A stretch of DNA of 64,000 nucleotides from Dictyostelium discoideum (taxonomy: Eukaryota), in assembly GCA_000004695.1 (NCBI GenBank), contig CM000151.3, positions 1,984,001 to 2,048,000 of the forward strand, read 5' to 3'. A program made the translations under genes and the position numbers. Below the pieces are notes generated by a model that was given only the letters and a program-made list of their open reading frames with translations, ran no database searches and had not been told where the DNA came from. Shown here one piece after another: positions 4,104 to 33,900 of this stretch. Within the stretch, counting starts at the first letter, position 1. Every line of letters begins with the position of its first letter.

Positions 4104-7100
4104 ATTATACCACCAAAATCAAGCATAGAATTTGGAACAGAAAGTAATGCATTTATGACAGGTACAAAAGGATCAGTAATTTATATAGTATTACCACCAT
4201 CAAGTTCACCGATTAATGTTGGATCAATTCAATCATTAACTCATTTACAATCATTAAAACTTTGGGATCCATTAGTTTATATTATAATTGAATGGTCAAC
4301 ACCATATTGGTCACAACATAGTTGTAGTATTCAAGTACAACCACAACAAAATTCATCATTATTAAATGTTAAATCAAATTTATCACAAAGAGAAATTAAT
4401 AAACAAATTCATTCAGAAGTTTTAATGTTTATACATAATAATGATAGTAATGGTGAAATTCAATTTAAAATTTATAAAAATTCATTATCAAATAGTGGTA
4501 ATGGTAGTAGTGGTGGTAATAATAATAATAATAATAATAGTTTAAATAATAGTAATAATAGTATAGGTAGCAGTGGTGGTAATGGTGGTGGTGGTAGTAA
4601 TGGTTCATCACCAAGTATGTCACCACAATTTACATCAATTTCAAAAACAAATTCACCACAAATTATTAATACAAGTAGTAATAATTTAAATAGTAGTAGT
4701 GGTAATAATAATAAACCAATATTTTCAATTGTAGATAATGATTATACATCATCACAATCAACATCATCAATACCAGTAGTTGCAGGTATAAATAGTAATA
4801 GTAATAGTAATACTAGTGGTAGTGGTAGTACAAGTATATCATCACCAAATTCATCATTTTCATCAAGTTTACCATCATTTTTTTCAAATAATTTCCCATT
4901 ACCATGGTCAAATGATGGATTTGGAGTTGATGGTGGTTGGAAAGCAAATGTAAAGAGAGGATCACGTGGTCAATTTATAACGATTCGTAATAATACAAGT
5001 AAACATTTAATAAGAAGGAATCAAACATGTTTAAATAGTGGAAGATGGTGTGAACCACCACCAGAGGGTATACCACCCAATTCTATGATTGAATTTGGTT
5101 CGGTTAGTAGTGGTTTCACTACGGGTACTGATGGTGTAATTCATTATCATAGTCAAGGTTCGAAATCTGATTTTAGATTTCAATTTAATAATCCATTAAT
5201 GGGTAAATCATCATTCACCTATCATTGTCCAAATGGTTTCAATGTTGAAGAGAAATATACTGATGGTAATATCTCATCAGTATCATTCACAATTAATGAA
5301 GGTGATAGTCAAACAATTCCAAAACAAATACCTGATTCACCATTACCAATACCACCAATTAAAACTGATCCAAAACAAGTTTTCATAAATGATGATTCAA
5401 TTAGAATATTTTCATTTAATGTTGGTTCAATAAATGTTAAAGAAAGTGGTAAAGAATTAATGAATATTAATAATAATAATAATAACAATAATAGCAATAA
5501 TAATAATAATAATAATGATCAAAATAAAGATAAAGATAATCAAATGTTAAATAATTCAAATTTAATTAATAAAAGAATTGAACAAATTTCAAAGAATTTA
5601 ATTAATTTTTCAGAGAAATATGATATAATATTATTACAAGAAGTATTTTTAGATTCATCAAAAGATATTTTAATAAAGAATTTAAAGATTTATTATCCTT
5701 ATATTATTGATAGATGTGGTGAAAATTCGGGATTATTCTTTGCAAGTAGATTCCCACCACTATGGAATGAATTTAGACAATTTAATAATGGTATTGGATC
5801 TGATGTAAAATATGGTAAAGGTGTACAAGGTGTGAAATTGGATATATCAACCATTAAAGAGAATACTTATCTTTACGTTTTCAATGCAAATTTACAAGCT
5901 AATCCTGATAACTCAATCGCTTGGCAAATGGTGAATGGTGATGATAAGCAAAGGAAAGCAGCAACAGTGCGTACATTACAATTACAATCGATTCGTGATT
6001 TCATTTCAACGGAATTGGCAATGCAATCTTCAACCATTGCAAACTCTGCTCTATTATTAGTTGGTGATTTCAATTTAAATGCAGAGGTTGAGCAAGTCAT
6101 TTCCGATCATGAGAGTAATAGTATCACTCTCTCACAAATCATACCAGAGTTGGCAAAGAAAATCAATAGTAAAGAGATCACCCTAACTTTTAGTTACCAA
6201 TTGTTAGAGTATTTAAATGATTTAAATATTCCAATGAGATATTTAGGCATTCTAAGATCACAATTACAAAATAATCGTATGAAATCTTTGGTACTCACTG
6301 AAATGATCACCTATATCATCAAGAAGGATATCATTGAACATTTAACTCAACGTCATAATCAATATCAGTCAAATATTAATGAAGATGAACAAATCTATAG
6401 AGAGGTGGTATTGGAGACTTTTAATTTAATATTTCATTATACTAGAAAGGATTGTATTCAATTTTGGCGTCATCATCTTAGAAAGAGATTAAGATCCGAG
6501 TTTAGTTCATCCCTATCGGAAATTGAACAACAAGATTGGGTGGATTTAAGAACTCATGTAATTAATCTTCAACTATTTACAAGTTTAAAATATTCTTTAG
6601 AGATCACTTTTAATCCAAAAGCTGTTTTCCAAATTATGAAAGGTTCAAGAATAAATACAAAAGAAATCATACCCATACCATTGATTTTACCTGAACAAAT
6701 CGAAGAAATCATTTTACCACCATTAACTTCTTATTGGGGTTCAGATTCAAATACTGATATAAATTATTTTACAAATATTGATCATTTAAAAGAACAACAA
6801 AAAAAACAAGCTCAATTACAACAATTACAACAACAACAAGCTCAACAACAACAACAAGCTCAACAACAAACCCAACAACAACAAAATTCAAATATAAATA
6901 TAATTAATACAATAGAATCATCACAAATTCAACAAAATAATAATATACAAATTTATTTGAAACAAACTGATGAATATAATAATATGTTAAAGATATTAGG
7001 TAATCCTGTTGATTTATTTAGAGAGTCTAATCCATTTTCACCAGGTTATACAATTCATCAATCTTTAAATCAACGTGTTGAAAAACCTTCACTCAAAGAA

Positions 7101-19431: not shown

Positions 19432-20583
19432 CACTTTTTACTTTTTACTTTTTTTATTTATTTATTTATTTAATAACTAACAGTCCATTTTCTAAAATAA
19501 ATAAATAAATAAAAAATTTAAAACATAAAAAATAATAATAATAATAAATTTATAAAAATTCAATTTAAATATTTATATATTAAAAAAATAAAAAATAAAA
19601 AATAAAAAAAATAAAAAAGATTTAAGAATGATGGTAGAGATTTAGGAATTTTAATACAATTAGAATCAAAGATTGGTGAAGAAGTAGGAGCATTTAAAAT
19701 AGAGAATTCAAACTTAACAAGTATAGACTATCCATTATTAAAATCATATGGTATGAGTCCTGAAATAGAGAATAGTGGTAGTGGTAGTAGTAGTGGTAAC
19801 AACAATAATAATAATAATAATAATAATAATAGTTTGGTACATGGGGATATAAATATAGAGGAATTAATAAAGAATATGACAATCGATCAATATTACGATA
19901 ACAAAGTATCAATGATGAATATCGTTGATCTTATGCCCGGTAAAGAGATTACAATGATTTCAAAATATTTAAAAGAATTACCAACTATAAAAACTAATAA
20001 CAATAATAATAATAATAATAGCAAACCAAATCCAAATATAGATAGTAGTAATGGAGATGAGATAATATCGATAACCATACCGAAACAGACATCAATAACA
20101 TCACCATTCCCACCAATAAATATAGAGATTACAATCGATGGTGAAGTTAGTATACCACTTCACTCATCGGTATGTCCATCACATCCATCATCAATTTCAT
20201 CATTGACCCTATGTGAGAATATCATATCATCGAAACATGATATCAAAAGTAATTCCTTATTGAATGATGATTTCAATTTACTCATTGGTTTAGAATCAGA
20301 ATTGCATCACAGTGGTTGGACAACATGTACATTATCACCCTCCTCATCACCTCCATTATTATCCTCCTCTCCAAATTCACTACCACCAACCACTGTAATT
20401 TCAACTTTGATAAATTTAAATCAACCAACACCACCACTTGTCGATAGAGTTTCTTTTAACAATGTAGAATATAGTCTAAATAGTTCATCAACAACAACTA
20501 CATCTTATAGTAATAATAAACAAACTATAATTTATAGTTTGAATAATAATGATAATAATACAAATAATACAAATAACAATACA

Positions 20584-20614
<31 letters not shown>

Positions 20615-21955
20615 TAATTTTAAAGTATAATAATAACAAAGAATTTAACCTTTTATTAAAAACCCCAACTTTACCCTCTTCATCGAGTATTTTAAATAAA
20701 TTTTCTTCACTTTCAAAAATTCAACAATTATGTAAAAATAATGATAATAATAGTAATAATAATAATGATAATAATAAAAATAATGATAATAATAATAAAA
20801 ACAATGATAATAATAATAATAGTAATATAGATACAGGTACAGGTTTAGATATAGGTACATTATTGAATATAATATTCACAACATCAAATAATAATAGTAA
20901 TTTAGTAAATAATAATAATAATAGTAGCAATACGATAGTGTCACCACTTTCACAATCAGCACCACCAATTAATAATAATAATAATAGTAATAAAGATATA
21001 TCAATGATTGAACAAAATATAACGACAACATCATCACCACCAACAACAATAACAACAACATCACCACCATTACCAAAACTTCAAGAATCTGGTGAACTTT
21101 TATCAAATATGTTATCGAATTTACCAAAAGCGAAATTAGGGGGATTAAATCAACAAAGTTTAACAGCACCACCATCAGTTGGTAAAGATCTTTCAAATCC
21201 AATTGCAGATTTCATAGCAAGTAGAGCTGCAGCAGGTGGTTCAAGTGGTAGTAATAAACCCAAGAAGGGACCACCACCTAAATTGGGTGGTTTAGGTGGT
21301 GGGTTGAATACCTCAACAGGTGCAGGTGGAATTGGTGATGTTAGAGTACAAAGATTGGCAAGTTATAATAAAGTCAACCAATTATGGAATGTTTCATCAT
21401 CAGATTTTGCACAACGTGTTTCAATTACCCTAAGAGAACTTGAACCCTATGCAATTGATTATGCATTGTCTCATATTAAATCAAAGTGGTGGGACAAGAA
21501 TAGGATAGCAACACTAGCTGAAATCAAATGTATACATTCTATAATCTCTTCAATCATTAATAGTCCAAAAATTAATTTAACATATATTTCTCCATCATCA
21601 TCATCATCAACAAACTCTTCAAATTCAGACGCAAAAGATCAAACATCAACCACTACAACCACCACTACATCATCACCAACTCCAAGTGCTTCAGATGTAG
21701 CAGCAAGTAGATTTTTATTACAAAAAGGTAGTTTTACTGATTTAACAAAATTAATGGGAAAACCACAATCATCATCATCATCATCATTATCACCCTCATC
21801 TTCACTCAATCCTTCACCATCAACCTCATCAAATTCTTTATTATCACCATCATCACCAAGTAAAACGAGAAAAGAGGTAGAGATGGAAATTGATCCAGTA
21901 AAACTGAGATGGATTGTTGAAGAAGTTTTAAATGGTGAAAAAGCGTCAATAGAGA

Positions 21956-21999
<44 letters not shown>

Positions 22000-22919
22000 G
22001 GTAATAAATGGTTTAGTGTAAGTATTGGAGAAACAAAAGGAGGTAGACCTCATATGGAGGATAATCATGTTATTCTTGAGTATCCATATGAATTATATGG
22101 TTTAGAGAAAAAGAAAAGTGTAGATTCAATAGCAGGTGCAAATAGTAATAGTAATAATAATAATAATAATAATAATTGTATAAGTATTTTATCATCAAAT
22201 GAACAATTCTTTTTTGGTGTATTTGATGGTCATAATGGAAAGATAGCAGCTGAATACTCAAGAGTTAATTTACCTTATGAAATTTTTAATAGCTTTATAA
22301 AAATTAACAAAGTTGGCAACAGCGCAAACAATAACAATGTTGATGATTTATGTTTGGAGGCTATCAAACAAGGCTATTTGAATACAGATAAATACTTTTT
22401 AGATTATGCAGAATCTGATAATAAGAAAGCAGGTACAACAGTTGCAACAGTGATCTTGGAAAGAGAAAGATTTATCGTTTCAAATGCAGGTGATACAGAG
22501 GTTGTATTATGTTCAGGAGGCATTGCTGAACCATTGTCAATCATTCATACACCAAAATTAGATACTGAAAGAATACGTATAGAGAGTGCTGGCGGTTCAA
22601 TCATTCATTATGGTACACTAAGAGTCAATGGTTTATTGTCAGTATCTCGTTCCATTGGTGATAAGAATTTAAAAGAATTTATTATACCAAATCCTGATTC
22701 CCACATTCACAATATCAATAAACCCAATGACCAATTCTTAATGATTGCAACTGATGGTCTTTGGGAAGTTTTTAACCATCAAGATGTAGTCAATGAAGTC
22801 CTAAAATTATTACAAGATAAAACTATTCAAAAAGATGATATCTCTTCAATCATTGTTGAAGAAGCAATTAAAAGAAATTCAAAAGATAATATAACTTTAA
22901 TAATTATTTTCTTTAACCA

Positions 22920-22926
<7 letters not shown>
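19225..22926 (+). CDS. Large low-complexity protein with a C-terminal PP2C (PPM-type) Ser/Thr phosphatase domain; join(19225..19364,19620..22926), about 1149 aa
   Basis: Exon 1 MVLNLVSDENGLDISFISYNVTFIDRCAQFTVTLKYKNLSSLPLPL + AA|GTACAT (phase 2). Acceptor AAAAAAG|A at 19620 restores the frame into ...FKNDGRDLGILIQ...MSPEIENSG.... PP2C motifs: GGRPHMEDNH, FFGVFDGHNG, NAGDTEVVL, ATDGLWEV. Poly-N, poly-S/T and GPPPKLGGLGGG tracts. Confidence 0.65.
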
Positions 22927-25457: not shown

Positions 25458-26203
25458 TTTATAATTTATGTTTAATTATGGCACATATTTCATTTACATC
25501 ATGTTTTTTCAAATATGTTCAAATTGATTTCAATTTCTTTGGATCAATCTTTTGGAGACAAATTTTAGGTTTAATGTTAATTTTAATCAATTTATGGAGT
25601 TCCTTATCAACATTTGAAGTTTTGGGTGAATTTGGTTGGTTCTATGGTGATTTCTTCATTGAAGATATTCCATCCAATCTTTATTATACAGGTATCTATA
25701 GATTTTTAAATAATCCAGATTCTGTAACTGGTTTCGCTGGTTTCTATGGTCTCAGTTTAATTGCCGGTAGTTTCCCATTATTTGCCTTGTCAATATTCTC
25801 ACAAGTTGCCAATTTCCTCTTTATCAAATTCGTTGAGAAACCACATATGAAGAGACTCTATGGAAGTAAAGTACGTTCTCAAAGTGGTATTTCCAAAGGT
25901 ATTCAAGAGATTGTCAATGAATTAACTGAAACTTCACCACCAATTCAAAAATTAGTTACAAAAACTCGTAATCTTACTGAACGTGTTGAAAGAAGAGTTT
26001 CTGATCGTATTAATTCCTTTGTTGATGAACTTCAAAAACATGGTATTCCATTATCAACTGAACAATTTGAAATTTTAAAAACTTTAAAAGAGAAATATAA
26101 TAATAATAATAATACTTCACCAAGTGATAGTGATAATAATAATAGTAATAATAATAATAATAACACTAATAGTAATAATAATAAAAAATCAAAGAAAATA
26201 TGA
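23612..26203 (+). CDS. Cho2-type phosphatidylethanolamine N-methyltransferase (two PEMT-like halves), 5 exons: join(23612..24121,24222..24410,24509..24822,24897..25346,25456..26203), about 736 aa
   Basis: Donors GTAAGT (24122, 24411), GTATGT (24823), GTAAGT (25347). Acceptors AAAAAG|, TACAG|, AAATAG|, AAAAG|. All phases close. Conserved PEMT motifs: FAWYWGDFFFLVDQ...SISPHPMYTIG|G-YTFYYGASL in half 1, and GEFGWFYGDFFIEDIPSNLYYTGIYRFLNNPDSVTGFAGFYGLSLI in half 2. Confidence 0.8.
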
Positions 26204-26404: not shown

Positions 26405-26647
26405 TTATTTATTTTCAATATTTGGAGAATGACAAATTTGTAAATGGAATTTATAATTTTTAATTTGACATTCTTTTGAACAATAATAAACCTTTTTACA
26501 TTTTGAGCATTTTTTTAAAGGAACATTCTTTTTAAAACAAGTTTGACAAACTTTAATTAATGCACTGGTGCTCGAGCTCGATGATGATGATGATGAAAAA
26601 GAGGAGGAAGATGATTTTGAAGGTGATTGGGGTTGTTGTTGCTGTGG

Positions 26648-26712
<65 letters not shown>

Positions 26713-28223
26713 GAATTGGTGAAGAAGGCGAAGGTGGTGAAGAATAAGGTTGAATTGCAGAATCATTTGATTGTTCTAATGAGAATGAAAAGAAATATAA
26801 TTCAGCCATAATTAATAATGAATAACCTAAACTAAGGGAACCAATGAATAACCATTCACCAGTTGAAAAATTTAAAAAGTATTGAATAACTAAAAATATG
26901 AAACCAGTTAAGAATTGTTTAACAGTTTTCTCAACTAAAAGTTTTGATTTTTGATCGATATCTAAATTCTCTTTATTGTTGATTAATGCTAAATTTGCCT
27001 TATAAATTACCATATGAAATAAGAAATGAATGATATAATTCGATAGGAATTGATAGATTCTTGATGGTATGAAATAGTAAACACCAGTTGCCGAAAGAAT
27101 CAATGGTAATGCTATTTTAAAAGGTGAAGATTGGAATAGAATTAACTTTACAATTGAGAAAGCTGGTGGAATTAACCATTCGATTCTTCTACCTGATAGG
27201 AAATCTAAAAACCAAATTGGACCCCAAAATATTAAATAGATGCTAATATCCAATTCGGAATTATTTAATGATGTGAAAATTAATGCCAAAATCGATGAAT
27301 AAAATGATGGACCTGTTTCTGGTTTCTTGAATACATAAATTCCTAATAACAACAATATGATACTACCAAAGATCATAATATTCAAACTTAATAATCTCCA
27401 AAACATTGGATAACCACTACTTATATCGATCTCTCTCAATGAGTCATAAAACATTACAAAAAACCATAAAGTAACTGTGATTGATGAATTCTTTTTCCTA
27501 ATATTTGGCCATAAGAATACAATACCATAAATTATGAAATTGGTTATGAATGGTAATGCTTTAGTTGGTAATATAAAATATAATAATAAATTTGCACCTC
27601 CAACATACACAAAAAATAATAATTCTAATTGTGATCTAGATAAAAATAAAAAATATAATATAAATAATGATACAAATATCCTTTAAAATAAAAATTATTA
27701 TTAGTATATTGATTGATTGATTAATTGATTGATAGATTGATTGATTAATTGATTGATTGATTGATTTATTGATACAATACCATTCTATATAAATTGTAAA
27801 AAAGTGATCAATTATTAAGGATATAACACAAAATGAAATTGATATTAACCATTCTGAGCCTTTACTATCAACATTATTACCAAGTTGATTAAACATTAAA
27901 CCATCATAACCAAATGAATCATAGAATAATTTAGTATCGGGATTCGATAAGATTTGATAGGCTTTATTAATCTCTTGAAATTTATCGACACCATGCGGAT
28001 TCTTGTCAGGATGATATTTTAATGCTAATACTTTATAGGCTTGTTTAATCTCTGATGCATTATCTGTTTTTTCAATTCCTAATATTTCATATGGTGATTT
28101 TAATTCTCCTTCTTTATTATAACTACTATTACTATTGCTATTACTATTGCTATTGGTACCACTGCTATTATTATTATTATTATTATTATCGCTATCACTA
28201 CTAATATTATTACTATTTGACAT
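26405..28223 (-). CDS. J-domain (DnaJ) protein fused to a multi-pass transmembrane region and a C-terminal zf-MYND finger; complement(join(26405..27680,27781..28223)), about 572 aa
   Basis: J domain YEILGIEKTDNASEIKQAYKVLALKYHPDKNP in exon 1. Exon 1 ends ...GSEW with TG|GTATTG (phase 2). The 100-nt intron carries a (TCAA)n microsatellite and ends TTTTAAAG|G. Exon 2 is hydrophobic (IFVSLFILYFLFL...VYVGGANLLLYFILPTK...), then poly-Q/Ser, then CQTCFKKNVPLKKCSKCKKVYYCSKECQIKNYKFHLQIC (MYND). Confidence 0.65.
26631..26714 (+). repeat. (TTG)n microsatellite (about 25 units), encoding poly-Gln on the minus strand within the J/MYND gene
   Basis: Seen directly in the sequence. Overlapping ORFs 26557..26766(-) and 26560..26811(+) are translation artefacts of this repeat. 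Confidence 0.9.
27709..27772 (+). repeat. (TTGA)n tetranucleotide microsatellite inside the intron of the J/MYND gene
   Basis: gattgattgattaattgattgatagattgattgatt... Confidence 0.85.
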
Positions 28224-28542: not shown

Positions 28543-31500
28543 ATGTCTTTAAATAATTACAACAACAACAACAACAACAACCGCAACAATAACAACAACA
28601 ACAATAATAGTAATAATAATAATAATAGTTTTACGAATGATAACTATGCAATTGATACAGAATGGGAAAATAATAAAAATAATAATAATGTAACATCACC
28701 AATATCATCAAATCATAGTTCACCATCTTCGTCATCATTATCAAGATCATCATCTATGTTATTTGGAGAGAACAATGGCACATCACCATTTATATTTGCT
28801 CAATCATTAACATCGGTTTGTTTAGATCCAATGTCACCATTACCAAATGAATGGTCACCCTCAGATTTACAATTACCACAATCATCATCCTCTTCATCCT
28901 CTTCAGCGACAACAGCGACAACAACAAATGGGAATAATGTTATAACATCACCAACATTACAATTTAATAATAGTAGTAATATTAATATTCAATCATTTAA
29001 TAGCTATATTCAAAAGATTAAGCCATATTATAAGATATTCTTAGAGAATAAACAAAAGGATTTAATACCAACAAACAAAAAAACTAAAGAAGAAATCATC
29101 AGTTTAGAGAATATACCAGCATTCTTTTTTAAAAAGGATATGACAGTTAATGAAATTTTAAACTATGCAAATAATGATCCATCACCAATCATATTTCAAA
29201 AGTTGGAACATTATTACACTATAATCGAGGAGAATATAGTTGGTCATGTTCGTGATAAATCTTTATTATTCTTTTCTGCAATGTCTGATTTAAAACAATT
29301 TAGATCTCAATTAATTAATTTATCGAATCATATTAAAAATTCAGAGTAATATATAATTTATAATTTATAATTTATTTTTTAAGTTTTATATATATATTAA
29401 TTTTTTTTAAAAAAAAAAGAGAAACATTAGGTGAAATTGATGATAATATTATACATGGATTAAATATATCAAAATTATTTCTTCAAAAGAATAGAATAAA
29501 GGATACATTAGAAACATTATCATTGGTATCAGAGGTTACACAAGCACAACCCGCATTACAACTTTTACTATCTAAAGGTGATTATATGGGTGCATTGGAA
29601 TTAATCAATAGAACTCAATCAGCTATCTCTTTAGAATTACATTACATTTCATCATTAAAGAATTTATCACCACAATTATTGGAAATGATTAATTTAATCG
29701 AGAAAATGTCATTACAAGATTTTATTAAATATTCATTAAATGATGAAATCCTATTAAGTTCTTCACCAAATAGTAATAATAATTCACCAATTTTTAATAA
29801 ACTTTCTTTAAAAAATAGAAATAGAAATAAAATTAATAGTAGTAATAATGAAGAAAAAGAAGATAATGAAGATTACTATGATGAAGAAGACGATGATGAT
29901 GATGATGATGATGAAAATATAAACTATGAATCATTAAATGAAAATTTAAATAATTATTTATCACCATTAATAATTGTATTATTAAAAGTTGGTAGAATTC
30001 AAGAAGCATTAGAAGAATTTAGAGATGCATCAAATGAATCATTTAAACAACTTTTTAAGAATACTGTTGCAAATATAACCTATCAATTATTGGATAGTGG
30101 TGGTAGTAGTCATCATAAAACACCCACAAACTCATTCAACTCTCAAAATTTCAATTGGAATGATTGTAAATTAAAACTTTTAAAATTATCTTCTAATGAT
30201 TCATTACCATTATTTAAAGCTGTTGAAAAAGCATTTCGTAGGAAATTCATTGTATTTTCAAAAGTTTTAGAATTAATTATAGATATTGTAAATAATAATA
30301 ATGGAATTAATAATAATGGAATTAATAATAATAATAATAAGAATGGTGATAAATCACCAAATATATTTGGTGAAACAGTTATTAATACTTGTAGTACAGT
30401 TGCATATTCAATAATTGAAACTATGCAAGAAAGAATATCATCATTAATGAAAGTTAGGGGTGAAATTAATGCAAAATTGGCATTACCAGATTTTGTATTA
30501 CTCTATAATCAAATTGAATCATTTTTAAAGTTTACTGAATCTTATTCACTTTCAAAAAGAAAAACACCAATCTTAAGATCATCAATATTGGCTCAATTAA
30601 AAATGTTTTTAGATATTCTTCATCAAAATAGATTATCATCATTAAAATTATTATTAGAAAATGAAGATTGGGTACAAGTTAAAGTAGTTTCTGAATTTCA
30701 AAATATTGTAAATAGTATAGTTCAACAATCAACTGATTATAATAATAAAGATAATAATAAAGATAATAATAATAATAATAATAATAATGAAAATAATAAT
30801 ATATCAGATGAAATTTATATAAATAGTGAACCATTTAAAGTTGTAAATACATCATTAATGTTATTGAAATTTATAAATGACTATTTATGTTGTTGTGAAA
30901 AGTTACCAACGATTATTATAGATTCACTTCCAAAGATTATAGAGATTTTAAATACATTTAATAGTATGACTCATCAATTGGTATTGATGGCAGGTGCTAG
31001 ACAAACTATGAAATTGAAAACTATCACTTCCAAACATTTAGGTTATGCATCACAATCATTAAGTTTTCAAATAAAGTTAATACCATATATAAAGGTGATA
31101 GTATCAAGATCATTAACAGTGAAACAGTTATCATTATTGAATGGATTGGATAAGTTGCTACAAGATTTCGTTTCACATAGACAAGAGATTTTCAATAAAT
31201 TTGTGGTTATCATTAAAGAAAGATCAAGTTATCATCTTAAAGTTTTAGGTTCAATAGATTTAAGAGATGATACTTTACCAATTCCAACACCACCAATAGC
31301 ATCACTCTCAAAAGATATTACAACACTTCATAAATTATTAGCTTCAATTTTACCACCTGATCAATTATTTAAAGTATTTACAAATATTTACTTTATGTTT
31401 AATAGTTTATTCATTGAAAATCTTTCAAAGTTTGATATGTCTCATAAATTATCAAAAAGAAGAATACATAATGATGTTTTACATTTATTAAATTCAATTC

Positions 31501-31571
31501 GTAATTTGCCAAATGCTGGTGATCCTGGTAATGATATTGAAGATTATTTAAATCAACATTTTCCAATGTAA
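28543..31571 (+). CDS. vps54: VPS54 (GARP complex subunit); join(28543..29345,29420..31571), about 984 aa
   Basis: Exon 1 ends ...NSE with GA|GTAATA (phase 2). The 74-nt intron ends AAAAAAAAG|A. The N-terminal region ...LEHYYTIIEENIVGHVRDKSLLFFSAMSDLKQFRSQL matches the human VPS54 motif LSHYLDIVEVNIAHQISLRSEAFFHAMTSQHELQDYL. The C-terminal Vps54 domain is ...LVLMAGARQTMKLKTITSKHLGYASQSLSFQ.... Confidence 0.8.

Positions 31572-31698: not shown

Positions 31699-33900
<2,202 letters not shown>

Follow-up and report, generated by a model that had tools for sequence, protein, structure and literature searches.

The question raised by a gene on the minus strand at positions 26405-28223 of a 64,000-nucleotide stretch of the Dictyostelium discoideum genome (assembly GCA_000004695.1, contig CM000151.3, positions 1,984,001 to 2,048,000 of the forward strand; the whole stretch is referred to here as the window) is whether an N-terminal J domain, a polytopic membrane region and a C-terminal MYND zinc finger are truly encoded as one protein and, if so, whether such a protein has been described and what its membrane region contributes. 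An initial annotation, made from the DNA sequence alone, had proposed this fusion and had not recognized it as a described family. The analysis presented here, which combines comparison of orthologous loci, profile searches and structure prediction, establishes that the architecture is conserved and undescribed and that its membrane core constitutes an orphan, internally duplicated family. The protein adds a variant to the membrane-tethered J-domain co-chaperones already known.

The exons of the gene and the two domains that bracket the membrane core are as follows, with coordinates here and below given as positions in the window.

28223..27781, minus strand: exon 1, comprising the ATG, a poly-N/S extension (residues 1-40), the J domain, membrane helix 1 and codon W148 up to its second base

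27780..27681, minus strand: intron of 100 nucleotides, phase 2, GTATTG...TTTAAAG

27680..26405, minus strand: exon 2, comprising the remaining membrane core, a low-complexity linker, the MYND finger and the TAA stop codon at 26407-26405

27918..28094, minus strand: J domain, residues 44-102 (Pfam PF00226, E 4.9e-21)

28005-28013, minus strand: HPD motif of the J domain (H71 P72 D73)

26432..26548, minus strand: MYND zinc finger, residues 526-564 (Pfam PF01753, E 3.7e-9)

The joined coding sequence of 1719 nucleotides is in frame and specifies 572 amino acids, and an in-frame TAG is located 9 nucleotides upstream of the ATG at 28223. Splicing at 27781/27680 brings the end of exon 1, ...ATAGAATG, directly onto GATATTTG. 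The intron contains a (TCAA)n array of 16.5 copies at 27708-27773, and the domains, the coordinates and the intronic microsatellite of the initial annotation were all recovered by the Pfam matches, the coding-sequence join and the repeat itself. Its description of the GTATTG donor as non-canonical is accurate only in that the extended donor consensus is weak, whereas the intron is of the canonical GT-AG type. A second donor, GTTAAT, with which exon 1 would end at 27850, keeps the phase, as had been noted, but it was rejected since it would remove the 23 residues LISISFCVISLIIDHFFTIYIEW, a helix kept in every orthologue. An acceptor that would open exon 2 at 27635, which affects two of the four in-phase donor/acceptor pairs, was also rejected, as it places a TGA at the junction. 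The two-exon gene model for D. discoideum is correct. Other D. discoideum strains have products that are 96-99% identical, follow the same gene model (P0001) and are labelled 'hypothetical protein'; this level of identity marks the stretch as nuclear DNA of D. discoideum. In one such strain (L005) the splice sites are identical, including the GTATTG donor, and the intron is 76 nucleotides long, versus 100 nucleotides here, because the TCAA array is shorter there. The length of this intronic array thus varies among D. discoideum strains (27708-27773 here; around 4460-4540 in L005).

The D. discoideum model stands on genomic DNA, its extended donor consensus is the weak GTATTG, and the frame of exon 1, if left unspliced, runs on as an open reading frame (ORF) of 195 residues. 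A collection of 15 billion proteins contained no entry identical to the 572-residue product, nor to the 549-residue, 195-residue (unspliced) or 349-residue (internal ATG) products. These features would be compatible with a gene-model artefact in which the J exon and the core/MYND exon of D. discoideum derive from separate genes or transcripts, an explanation that the comparative data make very improbable. Exon 1 alone already encodes, in a single ORF, the J domain followed by the first of the conserved membrane helices, and no ATG upstream of exon 2 could supply the conserved N-terminal helices. The layout of J domain, membrane core and MYND finger is also found in other D. discoideum strains, D. 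citrinum, Polysphondylium violaceum, Tieghemostelium lacteum and Cavenderia fasciculata, and partial models are available for Heterostelium and others. When the proteins were mapped onto their genomic loci, P. violaceum and C. fasciculata were found to have the intron in the identical phase of the identical codon (...IEW|IF..., split TG|G). In T. lacteum no intron interrupts EW|I, and a single exon covers the latter half of the J domain and continues across the six membrane helices 1-6. By this comparison the EW|I intron is a shared feature of the three other species with a predicted loss in T. lacteum.

Sequences from outside these genomes contain the joined parts as well. A 1,917-bp Joint Genome Institute contig (L006) with 82-90% nucleotide identity to P. 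violaceum encodes an entire 540-residue protein in one ORF and is without exactly the two P. violaceum introns; it represents either a spliced messenger RNA (mRNA) or a gene that has no introns. A 2,051-bp Logan contig from SRR10580902 (L004) encodes a 517-residue protein with J domain, core and MYND finger (P0127), again in one ORF. The IEW|IFVSL junction is colinear in T. lacteum genomic DNA, L006 and L004, and J domain, core and MYND finger are encoded together in a Ceratiomyxa fruticulosa transcript assembled with Trinity. Because the T. lacteum exon, the L006 and L004 ORFs and the Ceratiomyxa transcript all carry joined parts, the fusion is independent of the splice call in D. discoideum. 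The J domain, membrane core and MYND finger hence reside in one polypeptide, and the comparison found them joined rather than distributed between separate mRNAs for the J exon and the membrane/MYND exon.

Some further features of these sequences were recorded. The gene has one intron in D. discoideum, two in P. violaceum, two in T. lacteum and four in C. fasciculata, and the intron regions of the orthologues lie at 6349-6425 (L001), 6422-6510 (L002) and 6197-6757 (L003). An intron at DK|FQ, within the J domain, is common to T. lacteum and C. fasciculata. The L004 contig has a guanine-plus-cytosine (GC) content of 47.5%, far above that of dictyostelids, and a search started from its protein P0127 returned J-domain matches only, a DNAJB12 protein (P0186) among them, and no close relatives.

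The J domain itself is unambiguous, with a DnaJ match of 75.1 bits versus a gathering cutoff of 27.8. Its HPD motif is invariant in Dictyostelia and present in all J-bearing distant homologues, and the AlphaFold2 (AF2) predicted local distance difference test (pLDDT) score is 67-80 across residues 41-100. No Pfam match to the class A/B domains PF00684 and PF01556 was obtained within the 572-residue protein and no glycine/phenylalanine (G/F) region follows the J domain, the first membrane helix starting about 20 residues after it. Since the J domain is followed by no such region or domain, the protein is, by its predicted domain content, a class C (type III) J-domain protein.

The membrane region had initially been thought to contain about 8 helices. 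Hydropathy and two AlphaFold runs instead indicate 12-13, with 13 helices between residues 123 and 444 if a linker helix is counted, and they divide the region into three parts.

27314..27866, minus strand: membrane repeat A, residues 120-270, six predicted helices, spanning the intron

27263..27313, minus strand: inter-repeat linker, residues 271-287, with a weakly hydrophobic helix (residues 273-288), pLDDT < 50

26771..27262, minus strand: membrane repeat B, residues 288-451, six predicted helices

The first of the two runs used the full-length protein with an alignment of 9 mostly dictyostelid sequences and left the core unusable, most 10-residue blocks having pLDDT values of 30-40. The second was restricted to the core with 10 more diverse sequences and reached a pLDDT of 75 and a predicted template modelling (pTM) score of 0.51, giving a model of six helices, a low-confidence linker helix and six further helices. 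Paired motifs can be read by eye from the alignment of the two halves (IIDHFFTIYIEWI versus FLDFLSGRRIEWLI and LYFILPTKALPFITNFIIYG versus YYFIPSRIYQFLSNYIIHF). Comparison of repeat A with repeat B as profiles (hhalign) gave a probability of 97.8% and an E value of 8.9e-13 over 130 aligned columns, and the score for this true pair was 79.7 as against 9.4-13.7 for control profiles that were reversed or column-shuffled. Since the halves align so far above the controls, the core is a tandem duplication of a six-helix unit. Both repeats carry a D-x7-E-W and a Y-x3-P motif. Among ten family members, full or near invariance is seen for D139, E147 (with W148), Y182 and P186 in repeat A and for W304, D307, E315, W316, P320, Y349 and P353 in repeat B, and distant family members at 18-25% identity still hold the invariant charged and aromatic residues. 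The core is also the best-conserved part of the protein within the Dictyostelia (82% mean column identity).

The family to which this core belongs is small. When 1.84 billion representative proteins were searched exhaustively with a HMMER profile, only eight were obtained at E <= 0.001, comprising two dictyostelid representatives, Ceratiomyxa, Nolandella sp. and four environmental or Sequence Read Archive (SRA) sequences, one of which has J domain, core and MYND finger and another J domain and core. A word-index profile search with a diverse core alignment added only one further dictyostelid fragment (P0132). The protein from Nolandella sp. (Tubulinea; P0129) is a complete ORF with J domain and core in which the MYND finger is absent. 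P0128 likewise has J domain and core without MYND, but it derives from a 1,565-bp contig of unchecked completeness. Because the complete Nolandella ORF has J domain and core without MYND, the J domain plus core is the older, ancestral module and the MYND finger a lineage-specific accessory. Going by the two named non-dictyostelid members, the family is limited to Amoebozoa, a range that is provisional because the remaining members are environmental or SRA sequences.

No known family could be assigned to the core. A Pfam search of all ten cores found no shared family (best E 0.018), the core profile had 0 matches among PDB sequences, and a fold search gave no match, although this last result is weakened by the ten-sequence model used as query (pTM 0.51) and did not extend to AFDB. 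The searches by Pfam, PDB sequence and fold thus did not identify the core as a known transporter family onto which the other domains had accreted. Full-text literature searches retrieved no description of a J plus MYND membrane protein or of this Dictyostelium gene, and orthologues are labelled 'hypothetical protein' or 'J domain-containing protein' in databases. The initial view that the combination is not a described family is borne out by both lines of evidence.

At its C-terminal end the core is connected to the MYND finger by a tether with the following elements.

26747-26761, minus strand: A-[IL]-Q-P-Y motif, residues 455-459, directly after the last helix

26558..26770, minus strand: disordered low-complexity linker, residues 452-522, ~70 residues

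26632-26713, minus strand: poly-Q tract, (CAA)n, within the linker

The pLDDT is 27-29 over residues 441-520 in the full-length AF2 run. The A-[IL]-Q-P-Y motif is kept in all Dictyostelia although the rest of the linker is unalignable, and it may be a docking motif. The zf-MYND match scores 36.9 bits versus a gathering cutoff of 22.7, and the finger has all eight zinc ligands of the C4-C2HC pattern (C526, C529, C539, C542, C548, C552, H560 and C564) and matches PDB sequences of the SMYD2, DEAF1 and ZMYND10 fingers. In our alignment the putative peptide-contact positions Q553 and Y557 coincide with Gln-47 and Trp-51 of PHD2, residues that have been implicated in contact with PXL-type peptides (PMC6916684). 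The MYND finger of PHD2 binds p23, a co-chaperone of HSP90, at its PXLE motif, and the fingers of ETO and BS69 bind PXL peptides (PMC6916684). The fingers of PHD2/EGLN1, ZMYND10 and SMYD2 share with the present one the zinc-ligand pattern and the Gln and aromatic contact positions, although these are not membrane proteins, they have no J domain, and their Trp is a Tyr in the D. discoideum finger. PHD2 is a precedent for docking of a MYND finger onto Hsp90 machinery (PMC6916684).

Several known J-domain proteins resemble the D. discoideum protein in part, the homology found being confined to the J domain. DNAJB12, DNAJB14 and yeast Hlj1, single-pass or tail-anchored proteins of the endoplasmic reticulum, also have an N-terminal cytosolic J domain held at the membrane and bring Hsp70 to membrane-proximal clients. 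However, they cross the membrane with one helix, end in a DUF1977 domain and lack a MYND finger, and only their J domain is homologous to the protein described here. Sec63 is likewise a polytopic membrane J-protein; it has three helices, a J domain in a lumenal loop and a cytosolic Brl domain, and neither its architecture nor a core sequence is shared with the present protein. DNAJC22 has a C-terminal J domain, fewer helices and no MYND finger. DNAJC22 and Wurst are similar to the D. discoideum protein in being multi-pass, class C membrane proteins with a cytosolic J domain, whereas the order of parts is reversed here (J domain at 44-102, then core at 120-451), as judged from the general description of DNAJC22 and not from a sequence comparison. 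Sec63 is listed as DnaJC23, and DNAJC22 and Wurst are listed as a plasma-membrane protein of clathrin-mediated endocytosis (PMC5597180). A fungal protein of 466 amino acids from Tieghemiomyces parasiticus (P0133) also has an N-terminal J domain followed directly by a polytopic domain, in this case of the TMEM185A type (PF10269), but it has no MYND finger. Its membrane domain was rejected as a relative of the core (hhalign probability 1.5%), and P0133 is considered an independent architectural analogue.

With respect to topology, a 12-helix arrangement with both termini inside (N-in/C-in), in which the J domain and MYND finger are both cytosolic and the linker helix does not span the membrane, is moderately supported. 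The ~120-residue N-terminal region that holds the folded J domain opens the protein and is not preceded by a signal peptide. MYND domains are zinc fingers of the cytosol and nucleus, and an even number of spans is therefore favoured by the two ends of the protein. Lys plus Arg residues in the loops of eight homologues are distributed 69 inside versus 31 outside in the 12-helix model, and A4-A5 and B4-B5, loops that correspond to each other in the two repeats, are each rich in Lys, as parallel repeats predict. In this model the D-x7-E-W and Y-x3-P motifs of both repeats would be located at the extracytosolic ends of helices 1-3. The alternative is that all 13 helices span the membrane, which would put the J domain and MYND finger on opposite sides and make the repeats inverted, for example with a lumenal J domain that works with BiP as do those of Sec63 and the ERdj proteins. 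Both AF2 and hydropathy arrive at 13 if the linker helix is included, the R-R pair of the B1-B2 loop would in that case be on the cytosolic side, and inverted repeats are frequent in transporters. We nevertheless consider this arrangement quite improbable, as transfer of a folded N-terminal region of ~120 residues across a membrane without a signal peptide would be unusual, Lys plus Arg would be distributed 45 inside versus 55 outside, the Lys-rich loops fit parallel repeats, and the linker helix is of low hydrophobicity as well as low pLDDT.

We propose, with somewhat more confidence than doubt, that the protein is a lineage-restricted class C membrane J-protein in which the conserved core is the specificity or activity module, Hsp70 is activated at the surface of the core, and the MYND finger is an accessory. 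The J domain, by means of its HPD motif, would stimulate ATP hydrolysis by cytosolic Hsc70 and would load Hsp70 onto whatever adjoins the core. The core would be more than an anchor, because it is the best-conserved part of the protein, is duplicated and has invariant motifs, and because J domain and core persist in the MYND-less Nolandella protein. The extracytosolic D-x7-E-W and Y-x3-P motifs suggest that a binding or catalytic site might be situated there. In the Dictyostelia, Ceratiomyxa and the L004 protein, the MYND finger on its long disordered tether would add a second cytosolic contact and, by analogy with other fingers, may bind a PxL-type proline peptide, with Hsp90 co-chaperones that contain PXLE as candidate partners. 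The platform for Hsp70 recruitment envisaged by the initial annotation is plausible from what is known of such domains. That annotation also pictured a membrane anchor whose client is selected by the MYND finger, such that a passive anchor or scaffold would hold a finger that picks a proline-motif client and a J domain that passes it to Hsp70. The J and MYND domains are indeed both intact, the tether before the MYND finger is long and disordered, the MYND contact residues are kept, and the single-pass proteins DNAJB12/14 and Hlj1 broadly work in this manner. As an account of this protein it is nonetheless unlikely, since 12-13 helices are needless for anchoring and the motif residues of the duplicated core (D/E/W/Y/P) are invariant down to ~20% identity, and since MYND selection is not family-wide, the finger being dispensed with in Nolandella and therefore not the defining selector of the family. 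A further and distinctly unlikely possibility is that the core is a new fold or family with an activity of its own (as a transporter, as a receptor or as an enzyme that handles lipids or glycans, for example) that has its motif site on the lumenal or exterior side and is coupled to Hsp70 via the J domain. If so, in Eumycetozoa the core would also be coupled via the tethered MYND finger to a partner with a proline motif, which might be the co-chaperone machinery of Hsp90, and the protein would represent a membrane hub into which Hsp70 and a second partner are hard-wired, without counterpart in animals, fungi and plants.

A number of points must be set against the proposal of a core that acts as specificity or activity module. 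The conserved polar residues of the core could equally serve helix packing. The topology is provisional: the positive-inside rule is only moderately informative, its result hangs largely on one long loop, B4-B5, and helix A5 is short (~15 residues). The peptide-contact Trp of the MYND finger is replaced by Y557 in D. discoideum and D. citrinum, with Trp in other species. The D. discoideum gene model is known from genomic sequence and comparison. More generally, the topology, the recruitment of Hsp70, the type of MYND ligand, a possible activity of the core and the membrane concerned are all inferred. The interest of the protein lies in the fact that the specificity of Hsp70 comes from J-domain proteins, so that a new architecture marks where the cell directs chaperone power, and in its host, which is readily amenable to genetics and has a proteome rich in poly-Q/N and unusually prone to aggregation. 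The gene may represent a membrane-protein family not known before and a further place where Hsp70 acts, within the limits that the family is apparently restricted to Amoebozoa and that the data point to no specific cellular process.

The gene resides in a window of ~24% GC with poly-N and poly-Q coding tracts, and the genes around it are as follows.

19753-22926, plus strand: ORF for a PP2C phosphatase of 1057 amino acids, catalytic domain C-terminal

25478-26203, plus strand: last exon of a phospholipid N-methyltransferase (PEMT) gene (Pfam E 1.7e-34), converging on the 3' end of the J-protein gene

28543-29349 and 29523-31571, plus strand: Vps54-like gene (PF07928, E 7.7e-42), divergent from the 5' end of the J-protein gene

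31699-33531, minus strand: FNIP-repeat protein, 9 repeats

The stop codons of the PEMT and J-protein genes are ~200 nucleotides apart, and PEMT is also the neighbour in another D. discoideum strain (L005). Comparison with other dictyostelid loci showed no conserved synteny beyond the D. discoideum strains. The two Vps54-like ORFs are probably exons of one gene; ~320 intergenic nucleotides, extremely rich in A/T, separate it from the divergent J-protein gene. These neighbouring genes are ordinary and unrelated to the J-protein gene, and the PP2C and FNIP-repeat genes are each of a kind typical of Dictyostelium.

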